64,000 nt of DNA. Source: Bdellovibrionales bacterium (GTDB taxonomy: Bacteria > Bdellovibrionota > Bdellovibrionia > Bdellovibrionales > UBA1609). Position 1 is the stretch's first letter. Each line of letters begins with the position of its first letter. The stretch spans positions 640,394-704,393 of the forward strand of contig CBDBIB010000003.1 of the NCBI GenBank assembly GCA_965205945.1, written 5' to 3'. The notes beneath the pieces were generated by a model that did no database searches, was not told the origin of the DNA, and saw only the letters and a list, made by a program, of their open reading frames with translations. Shown here one piece after another: positions 29,944 through 47,579 of the stretch. The position numbers were made by a program, and so were the translations under genes.

Positions 29944-30903
29944 ATGTTGACTATGAAAGACAATCATTTTTTTGAAGGTCCAGAAAAAAAACTAGAGCTT
30001 ATTTTTAAAGTTGAAGTGGGTGATCTACTTAAAAAACCAAATATTTTTTGGTATGGCCTTATGGATTTAGTAAAGGCAAAGATTTTATCTTCCATTGAAT
30101 CTAAAACCTGTAAAGCATTTTTGCTTTCTGAATCCAGTCTTTTTGTCTGGAAAAATAGAATTATTTTAATTACATGTGGGACAACAAGACTTATAGCAGC
30201 TGTAAAGTATTTGATTTCTATGTTTGGAAAAGATTTATTAGAAGAAGTTTTTTATGAAAGAAAGAATGAGTACCGGCCGAGTCTTCAAAAATCATCTGCA
30301 TTAGATGATATGGCCTGTTTAAAAGATATTTTAGGTGGAAGTGTTCACAGGTTTGGTCGAAAAGATGACCATCATGTATATATTTTTAATAGTTGTTTTA
30401 GTGAGAATAAAAATAATGCAAAAGTAAATACTCTAGAATTACTTATGTACGGCCTTCAAGGAGAATTTAATCTTTTTTTTATGAGTGATCCAGTGGTTCA
30501 AGAAAAAGTATTAAATTCGTTTAAAAAAATTCTGCCTGAATTTACTTTTGATCCATACTTTTTTAAACCAGAGGGGTTTTCTTTTAACGCCTTAAATGGT
30601 GATCAATATGCAACAATGCATGTTACTCCTCAAGGCTCAGAAAACTACGTAAGCTTTGAACTTGATCATGTGGATATTCAAAAAGCTAATAAAATAGTGC
30701 AAAATCTTGTGCACCTTTGTAGGCCTACTTCATATGATATTATTTTGTTTTCTGCAGAAGAGGAGGGTGTAGGCATGCGCTTTAAGCAATATGAGATAAA
30801 ACAGATTTCTAAATCAGAAACAGAGTCCGGCTACAATATTTTATATAGTCATTTTTATGATAAACAAAGTGTTTATATTAAACCGTTTGTAATTCAAACT
30901 TAA
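29944..30903 (+). CDS. speD: S-adenosylmethionine decarboxylase proenzyme, eukaryote-type (class 2, ~320 aa)
   Basis: FFEGPEKKLE, LLSE|SSLFV pyruvoyl cleavage site, ITCGTT, HVTPQ and YVSFE; precedes speE. Confidence 0.9.
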   Translation: MLTMKDNHFFEGPEKKLELIFKVEVGDLLKKPNIFWYGLMDLVKAKILSSIESKTCKAFLLSESSLFVWKNRIILITCGTTRLIAAVKYLISMFGKDLLEEVFYERKNEYRPSLQKSSALDDMACLKDILGGSVHRFGRKDDHHVYIFNSCFSENKNNAKVNTLELLMYGLQGEFNLFFMSDPVVQEKVLNSFKKILPEFTFDPYFFKPEGFSFNALNGDQYATMHVTPQGSENYVSFELDHVDIQKANKIVQNLVHLCRPTSYDIILFSAEEEGVGMRFKQYEIKQISKSETESGYNILYSHFYDKQSVYIKPFVIQT

Positions 30904-30913
30904 GAAAAAAGAG

Positions 30914-31780
30914 ATGATCAATATGAAAGAAGGCATTGATATTTGGGTAAGTGAAAATTTTAATGATGTTTATAAGATGAACTATAAAGTTAAAGAGACT
31001 TTATATTCAAAAGAGAGTGATTTTCAAAAAATTGATGTGGTTTTAACAGAGCATTTAGGAAGAGTGTTATTTAATGATGGGCTTTTAATGACATCTGAAA
31101 GAGATGAGTTTGTTTATCATGAAATGATCGCTCATGTCCCAATGTCTTCTCACCCCTATCCTGAAACAGTTTTGATTATTGGTGGTGGAGATGGTGGTAC
31201 GGCCAGAGAAATTTTAAAATATGATTATGTTAAAAAAGTTGTAATGGTTGAAATTGATTCTTGTGTAGTTGAAGCCTGTAAGAAGCATATTAAAGTTACT
31301 TCATGCGAATTAGATAATCCAAGATTAGAGCTTATCATTGATGATGGTTTAAAATATGTGAAAGAAACAACTAAGAAATTTGATATAATCTTAGTAGATT
31401 CTACAGATCCTATTGGGCCAGCGGCACCTTTATTTGATGTGGCTTTTTATAGTGATGTTAAAAATTGTCTTACAGAAAAGGGTATTGTTGTTTCACAATG
31501 TGAAAATCCATTTTTAGCAATACACATGCAAAAAAAACTTTTAGGGATTAAGGCTAAGCTTTTTGATAAAATTGCTGTTTATAATTATTCAAACATTACA
31601 TATCCGGGAGGTTTATGGTCTTTTTCTTTTGCTTCAAAAACTCAAGATCCCATTTTAGATGCAAGACCTCTTCCTGACAGCATTGTTAAAGATTTAAAGT
31701 ATTATAATCAACAGTTGCATAAAGCAGCGTTTGTCTTGCCACAGTTTCAAAAAAATGAAGTAAAAGAGTACTTAAAGTGA
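30914..31780 (+). CDS. speE: Spermidine synthase (aminopropyltransferase)
   Basis: DEFVYHEMIAH, VLIIGGGDGG, VEID, DSTDPIGP and YPGGLW. Confidence 0.95.
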   Translation: MINMKEGIDIWVSENFNDVYKMNYKVKETLYSKESDFQKIDVVLTEHLGRVLFNDGLLMTSERDEFVYHEMIAHVPMSSHPYPETVLIIGGGDGGTAREILKYDYVKKVVMVEIDSCVVEACKKHIKVTSCELDNPRLELIIDDGLKYVKETTKKFDIILVDSTDPIGPAAPLFDVAFYSDVKNCLTEKGIVVSQCENPFLAIHMQKKLLGIKAKLFDKIAVYNYSNITYPGGLWSFSFASKTQDPILDARPLPDSIVKDLKYYNQQLHKAAFVLPQFQKNEVKEYLK

Positions 31781-34934: not shown

Positions 34935-34982
34935 AATGGACCTTATTTTGACTCTTTTTTGTCTATGTGTCACATCTTAATG

Positions 34983-35960
34983 ATGTCAAATGTACACTTT
35001 TTACCTATTCATGGTCGCCAGATGCCTCGTTTTGGTGGAATTAAAACCTTTTTTAGACTTCCTCATATTAAGAAAACAGATGAGCTTTTTAAAAACTTAG
35101 ATATTGCAATTTTTGGGGTTCCTTTTGATGGGGGGGTCTCTTATAGGCCTGGGGCTAGGTTTGCCCCATCTAAAATTAGAGAGGTTTCTTCATTAGGTAG
35201 AGGTTATCATTTTTCAAGAGATCTTACGGTTTTTGATAGTTTAAATGTAGCAGACACAGGGGACTGCTTAGTGACTCCTATGTCTGTTGAAAAAACATAT
35301 GAACTTATTAAAGCGTATACGGGAGAGCTTTTAGAAAAAAATAAAAAATTTATTTCAGTGGGCGGTGACCATTCAACAACGCTTGCTCATCTTAGGGCAT
35401 TAAAGGAAAAAAATGGAAAAGCAGTATCATTGCTTCATTTTGATGCCCATTTAGATACCTATGCTTCAGCATGGGGTTGTGAATATCACCATGGCGCTTT
35501 TGTAAGGCATGCTGTAAATGAGGGCTTGATTGATTCAAAAACCTCTATTCAAATTGGTATTAGAGGGTCTTTAGCTGGAAAATCTGACTTAGATTTTAAT
35601 GTAGAGCATGGCCTTTCATATATTACCGTAGACAACATTCGTTTAAAAACTTTAAGTCAAGTTATGAGTAAGATACATGGGCATTTAAAACAAGAGTCTG
35701 TATTTTTAAGCTTTGATATTGATTGCCTTGATCCAAGTTGTGCGCCAGGAACTGGAACTCCTGTTCATGGAGGTCTTACAGTGTATGAGGTTCAAAAGAT
35801 TTTTCAGGAGCTTAGAATTAAAAATTTAGTTGGAGCAGATATTGTAGAGGTTTGTCCTCCTTACGACACAGCAGAGATTACAGCTTTGGCAGCGGTAGAT
35901 GTTATGTTTGAAATTTTGTGCTTGTATAAAATTGAGATGAACAATGGTCATAAAATTTAA
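34983..35960 (+). CDS. speB: Agmatinase / guanidinobutyrase-type ureohydrolase
   Basis: PRFGG..TFFRLP, GARFAP, GGDHS, DAHLD, SFDIDCLDP..APGTGTP and EVCP. Confidence 0.85.
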   Translation: MSNVHFLPIHGRQMPRFGGIKTFFRLPHIKKTDELFKNLDIAIFGVPFDGGVSYRPGARFAPSKIREVSSLGRGYHFSRDLTVFDSLNVADTGDCLVTPMSVEKTYELIKAYTGELLEKNKKFISVGGDHSTTLAHLRALKEKNGKAVSLLHFDAHLDTYASAWGCEYHHGAFVRHAVNEGLIDSKTSIQIGIRGSLAGKSDLDFNVEHGLSYITVDNIRLKTLSQVMSKIHGHLKQESVFLSFDIDCLDPSCAPGTGTPVHGGLTVYEVQKIFQELRIKNLVGADIVEVCPPYDTAEITALAAVDVMFEILCLYKIEMNNGHKI

Positions 35961-37395
35961 TAGAGTAAAAGAAAAGTTTCATCATGAAAATTGGCCGACC
36001 CCAGTTTTTTATGCTCCGGTATTTTTATACTATCTTTATAATTCACTAAAATTTAGAAAATTAAATTATTTTACCACTGCAAATCCAGGTCTAAAGGCAG
36101 GTGGAATGTGTGGTTTTTCAAAATTTGAATCATTTAAACTTCTTCCCTTAAAAGTTATCCCTACTACGATTTTATTAAATAATAAGCTTTATAGTGAGCA
36201 GCAGATTAAAGAGATGTTGAGTGAAAAAGGGTTAGAGTTTCCACTGGTGGTGAAGCCAGATCAAGGGGAGCGTGGGTTTTTGGTGTCTAAAGTAGATAAT
36301 CTAAGAGAGCTAGTAGAAACAATAAGTAATAAGACTTTAAAAATAAATTTTTTAATTCAAGAGTTTATTGACGAGCCTTTAGAGTTGGGTGTTTTTTTAA
36401 TAAGGCAAAATAAAGAGTGGAAGGTGTCTTCTATTACATCAAAGGATTTTTTAAGTGTTTTAGGTAATGGGGTAAAAACCATTAAACAGCTTATTGTAGA
36501 AGATAAGAGAGGTCGAAAATATTTTAATCCTTCTAAAATGAAGCTTGATCTTAAAAGAGTGCCTAAGCATAATGAAAGAGTTTTGCTTGAACCTATTGGT
36601 AATCATTGTAGAGGAACTAAGTTTGTAAATGAATGTGGTAGCATCACAAAAGAAACACATAAGGTTTTTAATAATTTTTTAAAAGATGTTAAGGGCATTA
36701 ATTATTGTAGATTGGATTTAAGGTCTTCATCTTGGCAAGCTCTTTATAAAGGTAGGTTTAAAATATTAGAAATTAATGGTGTTTCAGCAGAGCCTGGGCA
36801 TATTTATGATTCATCTGTATCTTTAATAAGAGCTTATAAGGATTTATTCTTTCATTGGAATGAAATGGCTTGTGTGGCTAAAGAGCAAGTCTTAAAAGGC
36901 GAAAAGGCAGAGAAGTTTTTTGATACCATGGGGTTTATAAGAACTCATATGAAACGAAAAAAAGAACTTCAAAGAGCTAAAGATTTAGTTATTGATGTTA
37001 TAGGCTGTAAAGGGTTAAATCTTTCTTTGGATCCGGAGGTGATCTTAAATAAATTTTCACAAGAAGAGTTGACGTTAAATCATAAATGTGTAGAAACCAC
37101 TTATGGTTATGAGAGAGCAGTGCTTTTTAAAAACAAAGATGTTGAGATTGTATTTTGCCATTGGCGTCCAGGAGATAAAAGTTCTGTACATCTACATCCA
37201 GGTGTAAACTGTTGGTTTAAATGCCTAAAAGGTGATATTGTTGAATTAAGATCAATGGGAAAAGAACAAAATTTTCTTACTAAAGGAGCTATAGGAAATA
37301 TTGACGACACAAAAGGCGCTCACCAAATGCTTAACATGTCTAATGAGTGCGCTTACTCAGTTCATATATATCAAACTAAAAAAGAGAATTCATGA
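35944..37395 (+). CDS. Fusion of an ATP-grasp ligase (Ddl-like uncharacterised family) and a C-terminal cysteine dioxygenase domain
   Basis: ATP-grasp: FPLVVKPDQGERG, LIQEFI, RLDLR, ILEING. CDO: Y389-E-R391, W..G..S.H416-L-H418, C423, H460, S472-V-H474-I-Y476. One continuous ORF. Confidence 0.85.
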   Translation: MVIKFNRVKEKFHHENWPTPVFYAPVFLYYLYNSLKFRKLNYFTTANPGLKAGGMCGFSKFESFKLLPLKVIPTTILLNNKLYSEQQIKEMLSEKGLEFPLVVKPDQGERGFLVSKVDNLRELVETISNKTLKINFLIQEFIDEPLELGVFLIRQNKEWKVSSITSKDFLSVLGNGVKTIKQLIVEDKRGRKYFNPSKMKLDLKRVPKHNERVLLEPIGNHCRGTKFVNECGSITKETHKVFNNFLKDVKGINYCRLDLRSSSWQALYKGRFKILEINGVSAEPGHIYDSSVSLIRAYKDLFFHWNEMACVAKEQVLKGEKAEKFFDTMGFIRTHMKRKKELQRAKDLVIDVIGCKGLNLSLDPEVILNKFSQEELTLNHKCVETTYGYERAVLFKNKDVEIVFCHWRPGDKSSVHLHPGVNCWFKCLKGDIVELRSMGKEQNFLTKGAIGNIDDTKGAHQMLNMSNECAYSVHIYQTKKENS

Positions 37396-38783
37396 AAGAT
37401 CTGCTTTTTCATATTCTGGAAAAAGCATTGCTTTTAAAAGAAAAACCTTTAGTAAGCTTAAAATCTCCCAAAAAACTTACGGAGTCTTTTGATCTAAGTT
37501 TAAAAGATGAAAAATATTTAGGCGATGCTAAAAATCTAATAGATTCTGTTTTTAAAAACTCTGTAAATACTCAAAACCCAAGATTCTTAAATCAGCTCTA
37601 CGGAGGGTCAACTCAAGAATCTTGGATAGGTGAATTTTTAGTTTCCATTTTAAATACTTCTATGGCTACATATGAAATAGCGCCGCTAGCAACTCTTATG
37701 GAAAAAGAATTGATTAAAAGTGTTAATAAAAAAGTGGGTTTTCCTAAAGTTGAAGGACTCATGGTTCCAGGTGGGAGTTATGCTAACATGCTCGGTCTTC
37801 AGTGTGCTAGATACACTCATAATAGAAAAATAAAAGAACAGGGGCTGTATGATTCTCCAAAATACAAGGTTTTTATTTCAAAGGAAGCTCATTATTCTTT
37901 TGAAAAAGCCTTAGGTCTTATGGGGCTAGGAACAAACTCTTTAGTTGAGGTGAAAATAAGCCTAGATAAGAAGATGCTTAGTTTAGATTTAGAGTTAAAA
38001 ATTAAGAAGTGTTTAGCTGAGGGTGGAGTGCCTCTTTGTGTTGTTTCAACTGCAGGAACAACTGTTTGGGGTTCATTTGATCCAATTAAAGAAATTGATG
38101 AAATTTGTAAGAAATTTCAAGTTTGGCACCATGTTGATGCTGCCTGGGGGGGGCTGGGTCTTTGGTCACATAGGGGAAAAGACCTTTTTAAAGGTCTTAA
38201 GCAAGTAGACTCTATTACTATTGATTTTCATAAACTTTTTGCATCTACGTTAACAAAGGGACTTTTTTTAACATCACATAAGAACGTGCTTAAAGGGGCT
38301 AATTCTGGTGGAGGAACAAAATATATCTTTCACAGTGCAGATGAAGAAGAAATTTCATATGATATAGGCACTTACGCAATTCAGTGTGGTCGAAAGGTAG
38401 ACTCTTTACCTGTATGGTTTCAGTGGAAAATGGGTGGAACTGATCAGTTTAAAAATAAAGCCTCCCACTTATATAAACTGGTAAACTGGACCACAGAATA
38501 TCTTTTAAAAGAAGCTAAAGAGTATAAATTGCAACTAAGTCCTGAATACATGAATATATGCTTTCAAATGCTTCCTGGAGACAACAAACTAGATGTAGGA
38601 GAGTTTAATAAAAGAGCGAGAGCTCTTTTATTAAAGCGTGGAAACTTTATGGTGAATTTTTCTAGCACAGAAGAAGATGGTGTTTTTTTTAGATTAGTAC
38701 TAAGTCACTGGGGACTTACACAAAATATTCTTGAAGAGTTTTTTATTGAGTTAAAAAATATTAAAGAAGAGCTTAAATTCTAG
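37392..38783 (+). CDS. Group II PLP-dependent decarboxylase of animal GAD/CSAD type (putative cysteine sulfinate decarboxylase)
   Basis: FLNQLYGG...LNTSMATYEIAP, PGGSYAN, AHYS, TAGTTVWGSFD, HVDAAWGG, FHK (PLP lysine) and IQCGRK. Confidence 0.88.
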   Translation: MKDLLFHILEKALLLKEKPLVSLKSPKKLTESFDLSLKDEKYLGDAKNLIDSVFKNSVNTQNPRFLNQLYGGSTQESWIGEFLVSILNTSMATYEIAPLATLMEKELIKSVNKKVGFPKVEGLMVPGGSYANMLGLQCARYTHNRKIKEQGLYDSPKYKVFISKEAHYSFEKALGLMGLGTNSLVEVKISLDKKMLSLDLELKIKKCLAEGGVPLCVVSTAGTTVWGSFDPIKEIDEICKKFQVWHHVDAAWGGLGLWSHRGKDLFKGLKQVDSITIDFHKLFASTLTKGLFLTSHKNVLKGANSGGGTKYIFHSADEEEISYDIGTYAIQCGRKVDSLPVWFQWKMGGTDQFKNKASHLYKLVNWTTEYLLKEAKEYKLQLSPEYMNICFQMLPGDNKLDVGEFNKRARALLLKRGNFMVNFSSTEEDGVFFRLVLSHWGLTQNILEEFFIELKNIKEELKF

Positions 38784-38804
38784 TTCTTATGAGGAGAGTT
38801 TAAA

Positions 38805-39785
38805 TTGGAATTTTTTCCTGAATTAGATCAAATTGAAAAAGTAACAAAAAGGTTAAAACGTCAAGGAGTACCCTTTGAACGTAACACATTGGCTCAAATA
38901 GAGCATAAAGGTAAAAAATATCCAATACAGGGTTTTGTTATAGGATCAAAAAATCCAGAGGCCCCAACACTTGGTTTATATGGTAGTGTTCATGGTTTAG
39001 AGAAAATTGGAACACATGTTATTTTAAATTACTTAAACTCCCTTGCATTTAGATACTCTTTAAATTTATACATAAGAAAAAAATTTGAATCTTTTAGAAT
39101 TGTATCTATACCTATGGTGAACCCATATGGGGTAAAGCACAATAAAAGAGGCAATATGAATGGGGTTGATCTTATGAGAAACTCCCCAGTAAAAGCAATA
39201 GGCAAAACCTTACCATTTCTTTCAGGTCACCGAATATCTCCTAGAATTTGGTGGTACAGAGGTGAAGAGAATAAAATGGAGCAGGAGTCGTTGGCCCTCA
39301 TCAATTTTGTAAAAGAACAGATGTTTTCTTCAGAATTTTCTATGGCTCTAGATCTACATTCTGGTTTTGGATTAAGGGACAGGTTGTGGTATCCATACTC
39401 AAAAGCAGTAGGGATATTCCCCTTAGAGCATGAAGCTAGAAATCTAAAAAGAACAATGAAACTTATTAACCCCTTTCATATTTATAAGATTGAACCTCAA
39501 TCAGACTCTTATTTAATTCATGGTGATTTGTGGGATCATATGTTTGATTTACATTTTTTAGATTCTAAATACAAAGGGTTTTTTTTACCGTGGACTTTGG
39601 AGATGGGAAGTTGGAATTGGATTAAGAAAAATCCATTTCAAATTTTTTCACAAAAAGGCTGGTTTTATCCAATGAAACTACATAGGGTGAATCGAGTGAT
39701 GAGAAGGCATTGGTGGCTTTTAGACTTTTATACAAACTTTATTGCTAATGGTGGGATAGATTTAAGCTCTAGTAATTTTAAATAG
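38805..39785 (+). CDS. M14 zinc carboxypeptidase/deacylase-like protein (DUF2817-like)
   Basis: VHGLE (HxxE), NPYG...RGNMNGVDLMRN, DLHSG and TLEMG; GAGGAG SD before a TTG start. Confidence 0.85.
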   Translation: MEFFPELDQIEKVTKRLKRQGVPFERNTLAQIEHKGKKYPIQGFVIGSKNPEAPTLGLYGSVHGLEKIGTHVILNYLNSLAFRYSLNLYIRKKFESFRIVSIPMVNPYGVKHNKRGNMNGVDLMRNSPVKAIGKTLPFLSGHRISPRIWWYRGEENKMEQESLALINFVKEQMFSSEFSMALDLHSGFGLRDRLWYPYSKAVGIFPLEHEARNLKRTMKLINPFHIYKIEPQSDSYLIHGDLWDHMFDLHFLDSKYKGFFLPWTLEMGSWNWIKKNPFQIFSQKGWFYPMKLHRVNRVMRRHWWLLDFYTNFIANGGIDLSSSNFK

Positions 39786-39939
39786 CAGAACAATTTTTTA
39801 ATAGAGTTTTTTTAAAAGTAATGAGAATAAGAATTTGTCTTAATAGATTATTTCATAATGTAGGTAAAAATTATTAAGAGAGTAAGAAATAAGCCTAAAT
39901 AGGCTTTTGTTGAACAAAACCTTGGAGGTTAAGATTAAT

Positions 39940-40773
39940 ATGGAAAAAGTAAAACTTTTACAAGGTGTGACAGCATATGAAGACTTAAATAAAGAGTTTT
40001 TAAAGGTAGTTGTTTTTCTCCATGGTGGAACTATTCCAAGCTGGTGTTATGATCATGTGTTTAAAAAACTTCAGGGCAAAAACTTTAGACTTATAAGGTA
40101 TGATATGTATGGCAGAGGGGAGTCAGATAGTCCAAATCTTAAATATAATAGAATTACATATTTACAACAGTTAGAAAACTTTTTAGAAAATTTAAAAATT
40201 AATAAGGTGCATGCTATTGTTGGATGTTCTTTTGGGGCTTCTTTAGGAACTTTGTTTAGCTTAAAAAATCCCCGCGCTGTTAAGAAAATTATTTATATTT
40301 CTCCAGCTATAAATTGGGTTAATAATATTAAATTGGCAAGAATATTTTTTATTCCTATTCTGGGTAGAATTTTGTTTTATACAGTAGGTAAAAAACTCAT
40401 TAGAAAAAGAGCATTAGGTTTTATGAAGTTTTTAAAAGATGAGGAATTTTTAGTTTATCAAACACTAATAGAAAAACAATTTCATATAAATAATCATGGT
40501 TTTTGGGATTCTCTTTATAAGCAACTTACAACAGATGCGTTAAAGAGTTATCTTGCTGAGTACAAAACTTTAGGGGGTTTGAACCAACATGATGTGAGCC
40601 TTATTTGGGGTATTGGTGATAAGGAAGTAAGTGCGGATGATATAAAAAATATTAAGCAGTATTTTCAAAATATTAATATAAAAAATATAAAGGGAGCTGG
40701 TCATGGTCTTATGGCAGAATTTCCTGAACTGGTGGCAGCGTTTGTTGTAGAGGCTTTAAAGGAGGCGCCTTAA
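39940..40773 (+). CDS. Alpha/beta hydrolase
   Basis: FLHG, YDMYGRGES, GCSFG nucleophile elbow, GAGH; the ORF-track alternative start is 39907. Confidence 0.88.
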   Translation: MEKVKLLQGVTAYEDLNKEFLKVVVFLHGGTIPSWCYDHVFKKLQGKNFRLIRYDMYGRGESDSPNLKYNRITYLQQLENFLENLKINKVHAIVGCSFGASLGTLFSLKNPRAVKKIIYISPAINWVNNIKLARIFFIPILGRILFYTVGKKLIRKRALGFMKFLKDEEFLVYQTLIEKQFHINNHGFWDSLYKQLTTDALKSYLAEYKTLGGLNQHDVSLIWGIGDKEVSADDIKNIKQYFQNINIKNIKGAGHGLMAEFPELVAAFVVEALKEAP

Positions 40774-46705: not shown

Positions 46706-47579
46706 GGGTGTGTCCTCATAAGAGAGTCCTGAAATCAATACATTTGCCCAGTTGAATGACTTAAAATGATGGGAAAAACTCGACTTATCGAGGTATTTTG
46801 CATGGTAAGAAAAGTTTTAACAGATTCTCTATGGGAGCAGCTTGAAGTGATTTTGGTTTCACATGGCTGCAGAAGATCAAAAAATAACCGTAATGTTATG
46901 GAGGCTATCCTGTGGAAGCTTCGAACAGGTGGTCCTTGGAGGGGATGTACCTGAAAAGTTTTGTCCTTGGAAAACAGCTTACAATCGGTTTAATCGATGG
47001 GCTGCAAAGGGCTTGTGGGATAATTTTTTTTTGCTTTACAAGAAGAAGTTGATACAGAGTGGGTGTCCATCGACGGAACTTACGTACGCGCTCATCAGCA
47101 TGCTAGTGGAGCTAGGCGTGGAGAGTACCGTGCAATTGGAAGGTCTGCAGGTGGAGCCACAACAAAAATACACATGGCCTGTGATGCCCATGGAAATCCG
47201 ATTTGTTTTGAAGTCACTGGGGGTCAAGTGCACGACAGTAAAGCTGCACCCAGCTTGATTGAACAGCTAGAGGCAGAAAGTTTACTGGCAGATAAAGGCT
47301 ATGACTCTGAACAGATCAGGCAACTAGCTCGAGATAAAAATATGAAGCCAATGATACCTCAAAGAAGAAACAGTAAGAAATTAAATCCAGAACTGGATAA
47401 AGATACTTACAAGGCCAGACACCAAGTGGAGAATGTCTTTGTAAGGCTTAAACACTTTAGAAGTGTGGCGATTCGCTTTGAAAAACTCGCTAGAAACTTT
47501 AGATCGATAATATCTTTAGCGTGCACTTTTGTGTGGCTAAAACTTAACTATGCTGGTCCAGGGTTATGAGGACACGCCC
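46706..47579 (+). mobile_element. IS5-family (IS427 group) insertion sequence, ~874 bp
   Basis: 16-bp TIRs GGGTGTGTCCTCATAA / TTATGAGGACACGCCC (1 mismatch), flanked by TA on both sides; orfA (LTD..W...RTG.PWRD.P..F.PW.T.Y.RF.RW) and orfB (IDGT.VRAHQHA, ADKGYDS, R..VEN.F..LK.FR.VA.RFEK). Confidence 0.95.
46802..47569 (+). pseudogene. IS5 transposase with an extra frameshift in orfA besides the normal orfA/orfB junction
   Basis: An extra G in the GGGG run at 46941-46944 gives WRGCT* instead of WRDVP; a T9 run at 47024-47032 joins orfA to orfB in the -1 frame. Confidence 0.8.

Follow-up and report, generated by a model that had tools for sequence, protein, structure and literature searches.

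A predicted cysteine-to-hypotaurine module linked to an ATP-grasp ligase in Bdellovibrionota and its possible role in aminolipid synthesis

A four-gene cluster with a fused ligase and cysteine dioxygenase

The 64,000-nucleotide stretch analyzed here (positions 640,394 to 704,393 of contig CBDBIB010000003.1, assembly GCA_965205945.1 of a Bdellovibrionales bacterium; hereafter the window) carries a cluster of four genes encoding a ureohydrolase, a fusion of an ATP-grasp ligase with a cysteine dioxygenase (CDO), a pyridoxal phosphate (PLP)-dependent decarboxylase and a zinc carboxypeptidase of family M14 (Table 1). From the predicted activities, the recurrence of ligase, CDO and decarboxylase in related bacteria and the genes that accompany them there, we rate as an even prospect that the cluster makes hypotaurine from cysteine and couples this route to an amide ligase, one that would most likely modify the head group of an ornithine lipid.

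An earlier sequence-only reading of this DNA had proposed four genes on the same strand with operon-like junctions, and direct inspection of the sequence bears this out. The ureohydrolase gene shares 17 nt (35944-35960) with the fusion gene (35944-37395), the latter overlaps the decarboxylase gene by an ATGA (37392-37395), and a spacer of 21 nt precedes the M14 gene; in it, GAGGAG (38791-38796) stands 8 nt ahead of the TTG start codon (38805). Position 34983 is an in-frame ATG lying eight codons inside the first open reading frame, which starts at 34959 in the frame listing. A consensus scan found no convincing terminator in between the four genes and one weak hairpin (37402-37427) within the decarboxylase gene. 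The cluster is flanked upstream by mutY in divergent orientation and downstream by alaS in convergent orientation.

The carboxy-terminal part of the fusion protein is predicted to be an Arg-type cysteine dioxygenase of type I, that is, a cupin with a 3-His iron site. It matches CDO_I (PF05995) with 29.8 bits against a cut-off of 23, the A1 profile matches mammalian CDO (3.6e-12) and Bacillus subtilis CDO (4e-9), and Foldseek retrieves the CDO structures 4qm9 and 4z82 (1.5e-9). In an alignment to 6bgf and 2ic1, R391 is equivalent to R60 of CDO, H416 and H418 to H86 and H88, C423 to C93, H460 to H140, H474 to H155 and Y476 to Y157. All three His iron ligands as well as Arg60, Cys93, His155 and Tyr157 (rat numbering) are invariant across 21 fusion proteins, while the Ser153 position of the CDO triad is occupied by Ser or Thr.

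The decarboxylase matches Pyridoxal_deC (PF00282) at 1.9e-64 and has as its best solved relatives human cysteine sulfinate decarboxylase (CSAD; 2jis, 3e-81), the glutamate decarboxylase (GAD) GAD67 (3.7e-79), mouse CSAD (4.3e-78) and GADL1 (2.2e-76). Its HK motif, containing the PLP lysine, and its HYS motif align with 2jis, in keeping with the PLP lysine and stacking histidine of the family, and we predict a CSAD/GAD-clade enzyme that would convert cysteine sulfinate to hypotaurine. NCBIfam searches gave weak, sub-threshold matches to PanP and diaminobutyrate decarboxylase. According to a preprint on mouse CSAD (bioRxiv 10.1101/2020.09.25.308866), specificity in this group depends on a site that is Phe94 in CSAD, Ser in GAD and Tyr in GADL1, and both CSAD and GADL1 prefer cysteine sulfinate, aspartate being better accepted by GADL1. 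The window enzyme has Tyr at this site (NQLYGG), like GADL1, and the CDO-decarboxylase fusions of its relatives, described below, have Phe (NQLFSG).

An uncharacterized ATP-grasp family

The amino-terminal part of the fusion belongs to an uncharacterized ATP-grasp family. Its Pfam match is to RimK-type ATP-grasp (26.4 bits, cut-off 21, residues 60-145), and it scores far under the cut-offs of RimK (30.1 versus 143.4), LysX (25 versus 275.6) and cyanophycin synthetase (26 versus 850). The D-Ala-D-Ala ligase model TIGR01205 gives 16.7 bits against a cut-off of 245.65, in line with the expectation of the sequence-only reading that the enzyme would not prove an ordinary Ddl. On these family scores, assignments to Ddl, RimK, LysX or cyanophycin synthetase were all rejected.

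An AlphaFold model of the fusion, built on 21 homologues (pLDDT 84.3), placed the G domain of cyanophycin synthetase (7wae, 9.3e-11), GshF (3ln6, 9.5e-10) and Ddl (2i80, 7.8e-9) as nearest folds of the ligase half in Foldseek, and the best E-value of the A1 profile against solved ATP-grasp chains was only about 1e-3. K104, E276 and N278, corresponding to the nucleotide-binding Lys and the Mg-binding E-x-N, are invariant in the 21 fusion proteins. The secondary-structure listing of the model has short helices at residues 1 to about 65 in place of the usual amino-terminal domain, and in the fusion-protein alignment this region is rich in invariant aromatic residues.

A protein search returned 586 proteins at E <= 0.001, none of them informatively named among those listed; they include hundreds of unnamed stand-alone ligases of about 340 residues, mostly from Bacteroidota. 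No 19-residue segment of the window ligase reaches a hydropathy of 1.6 (maximum 0.67), on which grounds we rejected the idea that it is a membrane protein. Only relatives fused to a VTT domain are membrane proteins, with several transmembrane-like segments, unlike the window ligase. A paralogous VTT/DedA-ATP-grasp protein of 534 amino acids is encoded elsewhere in the same genome (G000:C1:414000-423500; locus L117, 7621-16458), together with a weakly MipA-like protein and a YHS-domain protein; beyond it lie three unusual Rieske fusions (a Rieske-TPP enzyme, a ferric-reductase-Rieske and a Rieske-glutamate-synthase-like protein), and neither CDO nor decarboxylase is found nearby.

Linkage of ligase, CDO and decarboxylase across the phylum

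The sequence-only reading had called for a search for recurrence of the gene combination, and we carried it out in a sample of 401 genomes evenly drawn from the phylum, with up to 19 kb fetched around each ligase locus and compared by tblastn. The protein search mentioned above gave about 21 clusters of full-length ligase-CDO fusions (42-100% identity), and a genome scan gave six Bdellovibrionales loci (L001-L006), in all of which ligase, CDO and decarboxylase are adjacent, with ligase and CDO as separate neighbouring genes in L004-L006. The window CDO domain matches 46 of the 401 genomes. Within this sample the ligase-CDO fusion (open frames of 484-499 amino acids) was detected only in the three genomes of the window's genus (G000, which is the window genome, G172 and G232), and four genomes of family f20 have ligase, CDO and decarboxylase as split genes. 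A second type of fusion, joining CDO to the decarboxylase (543-548 amino acids), occurs in families f2, f14, f16 and f24 (L113, L114, L118-L120 and others), and a third joins VTT/DedA to the ATP-grasp ligase. Three loci fetched for weak CDO matches (L121-L123, from G007 contig C8, G140 and G367 contig C124) were empty.

With a VTT-fused ligase as query, 31 ligase-family loci were found in 28 of the 401 genomes. Both CDO and decarboxylase are present at 19 of these loci, CDO only at one (G393), decarboxylase only at one (G116) and neither at eight; the remaining two lie on contigs that are too short (G114 and G032). Conversely, all 13 CDO matches that abut a decarboxylase have a ligase within about 3 kb. 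An independent metagenome scan with the CDO-decarboxylase fusion yielded 14 further loci, in five of which (L153, L157, L158, L162 and L163) a VTT-ligase stands near a full or partial CDO-decarboxylase; in another (L161) the decarboxylase beside the VTT-ligase has no CDO domain.

Maximum-likelihood analysis (quick search) of 51 ligase domains recovered two clades, each with an SH-aLRT of 99, one of VTT-fused proteins and the other of non-VTT proteins mixing Bacteroidota with the window's group; linkage to CDO and decarboxylase occurs in both. The linkage spans at least six families of the phylum. Gene order, strand and fusion partner differ among lineages, which speaks for the linkage being under selection and against a synteny merely frozen in place, although related genomes are not independent. 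The three fusion types and the recurrent neighbourhoods support the prediction that the ligase is functionally tied to CDO and decarboxylase; of the combination whose recurrence the sequence-only reading had asked to check, ligase, CDO and decarboxylase stand together at 19 of the 31 loci.

Stand-alone members of both protein families were also observed. Stand-alone CDOs of about 200 amino acids (L088-L112), which make up most of the remaining CDO matches, occur in 29 of the 34 genomes of family f16; the 22 such loci compared have neither decarboxylase nor ligase within 1.5 kb, and most of the CDOs compared retain Arg60, the His ligands, Tyr157 and the Cys93 equivalent, the exceptions being one with Ala at the Cys93 position and two with Phe at the Tyr157 position. 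The Bacteroidota loci (L007-L080) carry a stand-alone ligase in Cytophagales, Chitinophagales and Saprospiraceae, and no CDO or decarboxylase was detected there with these queries. Among the neighbours over the 80 loci L001-L080 are DinB-like proteins (53 loci; the Pfam match of one representative is weak, 21.3 bits versus 23), a LysE-type exporter (44) and TANGO2-like proteins (31), as well as YceI, YHS and DM13 proteins. One locus (L028) lies on a contig labelled Nanoarchaeota that has a mutY-like gene, and its ligase groups with Bacteroidota and Bdellovibrionota sequences; this contig may be mis-binned.

Lipid genes, membrane partners and redox genes in related loci

Genes for acyltransferases resembling OlsB, PlsC/OlsA or both are present at seven of the 19 loci that combine CDO, decarboxylase and ligase (L113, L114, L124, L125, L126, L130 and L133), at metagenome loci L154-L156 and, within a single clade, at four of the 74 Bacteroidota ligase loci (L024, L076, L078 and L079). 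The OlsB-like proteins are GNAT proteins (PF13444/FeeM), and the best NCBIfam matches of the relatives' acyltransferases are the ornithine N-acyltransferase OlsB and the lyso-ornithine-lipid O-acyltransferase OlsA. At L113, a leftward group (DoxX, CDO-decarboxylase, a 258-residue protein and an abhydrolase) is placed back to back with a rightward one consisting of DUF1223, VTT/DedA-ligase, OlsB-like GNAT, arginase and PlsC/OlsA-like genes; the arginase between the two acyltransferases scores 237.5 bits on TIGR01229 (cut-off 227.6). At L114 the order is MsrB, VTT-ligase, ureohydrolase, OlsB-like, M14 and abhydrolase; at L125 CDO and decarboxylase flank the OlsB-like gene, and the L124 operon comprises Pirin, ligase, CDO, decarboxylase, DoxX-YHS, VTT and PlsC-like genes. 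An OlsB-like gene directly follows CDO-decarboxylase in L130, L133 and L154, with a PlsC-like gene as well in L130 and L154; in L155 and L156 it is divergent beside CDO-decarboxylase, with no ligase in the flanks. Genes of arginase type are found in L113, L114, L126 and L130.

DoxX is the commonest partner of the ligase, being present at 17 of the 31 Bdellovibrionota and 23 of the 74 Bacteroidota ligase loci, with 50-65% identity across the two phyla. It might assist the ligase at the membrane or belong to a system that oxidizes hypotaurine. A small membrane protein of the DoxX family is encoded directly upstream of nearly every CDO-decarboxylase fusion (L113, L114, L118-L120, L130, L132-L139 and L153-L164), and in L124 DoxX is fused to a YHS domain. 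No DoxX homologue was detected in the window genome with the query used.

Genes related to oxidative stress form another theme among the neighbours. In L004-L006, all of split form, the decarboxylase gene is followed by one for glutathione peroxidase (11035-11703 in L004), and MsrB and the thioredoxin-like DUF1223 recur beside the VTT-ligase in many loci.

Presence of OlsB in the genome proved uninformative as a discriminating phyletic test: of the 19 cluster genomes, 17 have a match to the OlsB family (NF052555, E <= 1e-10), which says little because the family is common (242 of the 401 genomes).

Proposed pathway and alternative explanations

The conserved residues of the CDO domain lead us to propose that the pathway would start with oxidation of free L-cysteine to cysteine sulfinate. 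The decarboxylase, judging from its homology and from the CDO-decarboxylase fusions in relatives, would then make hypotaurine, perhaps later oxidized to taurine. The alpha-amine of the substrate has to be free for PLP-dependent decarboxylation, and it is with amine and thiolate that cysteine binds to CDO. The route from cysteine to hypotaurine would therefore have to run on the free amino acid, and PLP chemistry would put ligation after decarboxylation. Hypotaurine has no carboxyl group and would therefore have to be the amine partner, that is, the nucleophile, of the ATP-grasp enzyme. As suggested by fusion and neighbourhood, the ligase would activate a carboxylate as acyl phosphate for amide formation with the amine of hypotaurine or taurine. 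The likeliest acceptor would be an acyloxyacyl aminolipid of ornithine type, assembled by the OlsB-like and OlsA-like acyltransferases and reacting at its free alpha-carboxyl, since such an acceptor best explains the OlsB-like, OlsA-like and arginase genes of the relatives. Its amidation would yield a hypotauro- or tauro-ornithine lipid comparable to cerilipin (see below).

For the ligase family, the full set of parts would comprise CDO, a CSAD-like decarboxylase, arginase, OlsB/OlsA-like acyltransferases and the ligase itself, helped by DedA/VTT and DoxX as membrane partners. That this family is the missing ATP-dependent (hypo)taurine:ornithine-lipid ligase, by which Bdellovibrionota would build hypotauro- or tauro-ornithine lipids wholly from cysteine and arginine, is a plausible but tentative proposal. 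Lipids with a sulfinate head group could protect the membrane as sacrificial antioxidants, and the recurrence of MsrB, glutathione-peroxidase and thioredoxin-like neighbours would then be accounted for. The sequence-only reading had suggested that a sulfinate or sulfonate derived from cysteine is conjugated through an amide, and this idea gains comparative support from the fusions and neighbourhoods; the kind of conjugate is here refined to a membrane aminolipid head group, absent from the kinds it had listed, on account of the OlsB-like, OlsA/PlsC-like, arginase, VTT/DedA and DoxX neighbours.

Several observations weigh against this proposal. The window cluster itself has no OlsB-like, PlsC-like, DoxX or VTT gene, its ligase lacks a transmembrane-like segment, and the single OlsB-like gene of the genome lies on another contig (C2), beside feoB. 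No acyltransferase was found in the fetched stretch of 12 of the 19 loci with CDO, decarboxylase and ligase, and no OlsB-family match, at the threshold given above, in two of the cluster genomes, G018 (99% complete) and G345; where acyltransferases are present, they score far under the equivalog cut-offs (OlsB 115 versus 320, OlsA 83 versus 300), which makes these family-level matches. The linkage is incomplete on both sides, considering the eight ligase loci with neither CDO nor decarboxylase by these queries, to which the two on short contigs may be set, and metagenome loci L156 and L160, which hold CDO-decarboxylase and no ligase within their flanks. Related genomes are moreover non-independent samples. 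As to the other enzymes, Tyr at the Phe94 site of the decarboxylase fits GADL1, which makes beta-alanine as well; the window ureohydrolase is of agmatinase type and most simply read as SpeB; and an M14 gene is near the ligase at only three of 31 sampled loci, being absent from the fetched stretches of G172 and G232, both of the window's own genus.

Some of these points would be accommodated if the ATP-grasp enzyme joined (hypo)taurine to a free amino acid or small peptide, giving for instance ornithyl- or glutamyl-hypotaurine as a cytoplasmic antioxidant or osmolyte that is made and degraded in the manner of carnosine, with M14 as the hydrolase. The window ligase without transmembrane segment, the window cluster without lipid genes, the cytoplasmic M14 enzyme of carboxypeptidase type and the recurrence of redox genes (glutathione peroxidase in L004-L006, MsrB and DUF1223 in many VTT-grasp loci) all agree with such a soluble product, as do the closest folds of the ligase, which use soluble amino-acid or peptide carboxylates. 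We nevertheless consider it unlikely, given that the VTT/DedA fusions, the DoxX partner and the OlsB-, PlsC- and arginase-like genes in the operons would be left unexplained. Those acyltransferases could instead point to a lipid in which (hypo)taurine is directly N-acylated by the OlsB-like enzyme and receives a second chain from the PlsC-like one, the ATP-grasp enzyme being employed elsewhere, for example in an alternative ATP-dependent acyl-amide formation or in the addition of a second residue. The position of the OlsB-like gene directly after CDO-decarboxylase in L130, L133 and L154, and beside it in the ligase-free flanks of L155 and L156, would suit this route, which resembles the one proposed for the roseobacter sulfur-aminolipid (SAL), whose head group is an aminosulfonate and which needs a PlsC-like SalA (bioRxiv 10.1101/2021.02.05.429882). 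It would, however, leave the ligase without a role, although no other gene is tied so closely to CDO and decarboxylase (13 of 13 abutting pairs, and fusions), and the arginase-type genes of L113, L114, L126 and L130 imply ornithine. We regard direct N-acylation as unlikely, yet it is, like the soluble conjugate, a live alternative.

Little credence is given to plain hypotaurine or taurine synthesis in which ATP-grasp, M14 and agmatinase have no relation to it and stay adjacent through inherited synteny. Bacterial CDO and CSAD are already a described pair, and because the upstream mutY and the downstream alaS are also syntenic in relatives, part of the conservation among the window's close kin would be simple ancestry; yet the ligase-CDO fusion is invariant at the catalytic residues of both halves in 21 proteins, and the trio recurs in different orders, strands and fusions in at least six families and both major ligase clades. 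The least probable of the explanations, and one we hold very doubtful indeed, is that the decarboxylase acts mainly on aspartate, in the manner of GADL1 or PanP, with a beta-alanyl product of the ligase and another thiol substrate for the cupin. Its Tyr at the Phe94 site and its sub-threshold PanP and diaminobutyrate decarboxylase matches would agree with this, but GADL1 itself still prefers cysteine sulfinate, the CDO-decarboxylase fusions of relatives carry Phe, and the CDO domain retains Arg60 and all cysteine-binding residues.

Ureohydrolase, M14 carboxypeptidase and surrounding genes

The connection of the two outer genes of the cluster to the proposed aminolipid pathway is looser. The ureohydrolase matches Arginase (PF00491) at 9.9e-87, passes the agmatinase equivalog TIGR01230 (204.2 bits, cut-off 174.3), fails the rocF arginase model (87 bits versus 227.6) and falls just short on PRK02190 (299.6 versus 302). 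Its gene is kept beside the ligase in L001-L003, L128 and L129. Genes resembling speD and speE lie 3-5 kb upstream of it, and a SpeA-sized frame of the Orn/Arg decarboxylase family (639 amino acids) is present elsewhere in the genome (contig C1); together with the agmatinase these would make a full polyamine route. The S-adenosylmethionine (SAM) decarboxylase (PF01536) is of eukaryote type and is encoded directly upstream of the spermidine synthase (PF01564). Because of these genes the ureohydrolase is most simply SpeB, and it is probably only loosely connected to the pathway, its membership being uncertain. The sequence-only reading had counted it as a member of the operon, which holds for the overlapping junction.

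The M14 protein matches Peptidase_M14 (PF00246) with 57.2 bits (cut-off 21.6) and DUF2817 (PF10994) with 31.7 bits, has no obvious signal peptide, and has the zinc ligands H63, E66 and H185, the catalytic E266 and R125, the Arg for the C-terminal acid group, all invariant in seven homologues. Its model (pLDDT 67.3) retrieves carboxypeptidases B and T as top Foldseek matches (about 1e-10, TM about 0.6). The gene adjoins this system in the window and likewise in L001 and L002, stands 5.2-5.6 kb away from the ligase system in L004-L006 and lies within the VTT-ligase operon in L114 and L141. The enzyme may remove a terminal (hypo)taurine or otherwise recycle the product, and it is possibly in this trimming or recycling that it takes part; the linkage is weak. 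Of the earlier suggestion that an M14 enzyme matures or recycles the conjugate, the identification as a zinc carboxypeptidase stands, and with linkage at three of 31 loci the role is tentative.

A gene for an alpha/beta hydrolase 121 nt downstream of the M14 gene was rejected as a member of the set, as no tblastn homologue was found in the 80 related loci or in those fetched later, not even in L001, whose ligase is 74% identical; it is probably outside the conserved set. Further downstream, the window has a DDE transposase fragment (47063-47569; PF01609, 168 amino acids) followed by three large open reading frames, two of them without Pfam family and the third with only a Tad/Flp pilus-assembly domain (PF13400, 1.3e-7). 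The window genome measures 1.87 Mb at an estimated completeness of 97%. The other two genomes of the genus have about 2.0 and 2.4 Mb, whereas 2.6-4.2 Mb is the range for most of the family's other genera; sizes below those of most other genera point to a reduced-genome lineage.

Table 1. Predicted features of the cluster and of other genes in the window
Feature	Position	Strand	Matches
Agmatinase-like ureohydrolase (arginase family)	34959..35960	+	PF00491, TIGR01230
ATP-grasp ligase domain of the fusion protein (483 aa), residues 1-335	35944..36948	+	weak family matches, AlphaFold/Foldseek
Linker and Arg-type CDO cupin, residues 336-483 (core 388-477 = 37105-37374)	36949..37395	+	PF05995
Group II PLP decarboxylase, CSAD/GAD/GADL1 clade	37392..38783	+	PF00282, 2jis
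M14 (DUF2817-like) zinc carboxypeptidase, cytoplasmic	38805..39785	+	PF00246, PF10994
Alpha/beta hydrolase, 121 nt downstream of the M14 gene	39907..40773	+	PF12697, PF00561
SAM decarboxylase-like and spermidine synthase genes	29944..31780	+	PF01536 (1.4e-54), PF01564 (1.2e-58)

Comparison with known systems

Full-text literature searches returned no paper that ties an ATP-grasp enzyme to the taurine-ornithine-lipid step or describes this gene set, in agreement with the earlier statement that no described system with this combination was known. If the proposed aminolipid pathway is correct, it would provide the first function for a large ATP-grasp family (the 586 proteins mentioned above) and place Bdellovibrionota among the producers of sulfur-containing aminolipids; even with a soluble acceptor, a hypotaurine-consuming ATP-grasp enzyme would be new biochemistry.

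The first two steps resemble the CDO and CSAD pair of animals and some bacteria, the bacterial pair having reportedly been described by Agnello in 2013, in that the window encodes a decarboxylase of the CSAD/GAD clade and an Arg-type CDO that has both the 3-His iron site and the Cys/Tyr pair. The differences are that CDO is fused here to the ligase or, in relatives, to the decarboxylase, that the decarboxylase has Tyr at the Phe94 site, and that the product seems to be consumed by the ligase instead of accumulating. In the carnosine system GADL1, the carnosine synthase CARNS1 and carnosinase act together, beta-alanine supplies the carboxyl group, and carnosinase is an M20 enzyme. That system is a fair likeness, since there too a decarboxylase makes a beta-amino compound, an enzyme of the ATP-grasp type ligates it and a metallopeptidase can undo the bond; hypotaurine, however, cannot supply a carboxyl group, the peptidase here is of family M14, and the sequence relationship is at superfamily level only. 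The G domain of cyanophycin synthetase, GshF and Ddl are the closest folds to the ligase, which differs from them by sub-cut-off sequence scores and by its amino-terminal region. With OlsB/OlsA and the roseobacter SalA, the relatives' operons share OlsB-like GNAT and PlsC-like acyltransferases, whose scores are under the equivalog cut-offs, and the window cluster has no such genes.

A taurine-modified ornithine lipid has been known since 1976. In cerilipin of Gluconobacter cerinus, an ATP-dependent amide links the amino group of taurine to the alpha-carboxyl of an ornithine lipid, and a 2026 review by Moyano-Palazuelo et al. (PMC12971839) gives the gene of the ATP-dependent taurine transferase as unknown. 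This is the chemistry that would be expected of an ATP-grasp enzyme encoded beside OlsB-like, OlsA-like, arginase and (hypo)taurine-synthesis genes, and the likeness is drawn at this level, with no claim of homology to the Gluconobacter enzyme. The system differs in that the amine would come from de novo synthesis, perhaps as hypotaurine instead of taurine, and in that the Bdellovibrionota lipid is a prediction from genes. For the taurine-ornithine-lipid synthase, the cluster would offer a concrete, cloneable candidate family with a built-in supply of the amine.

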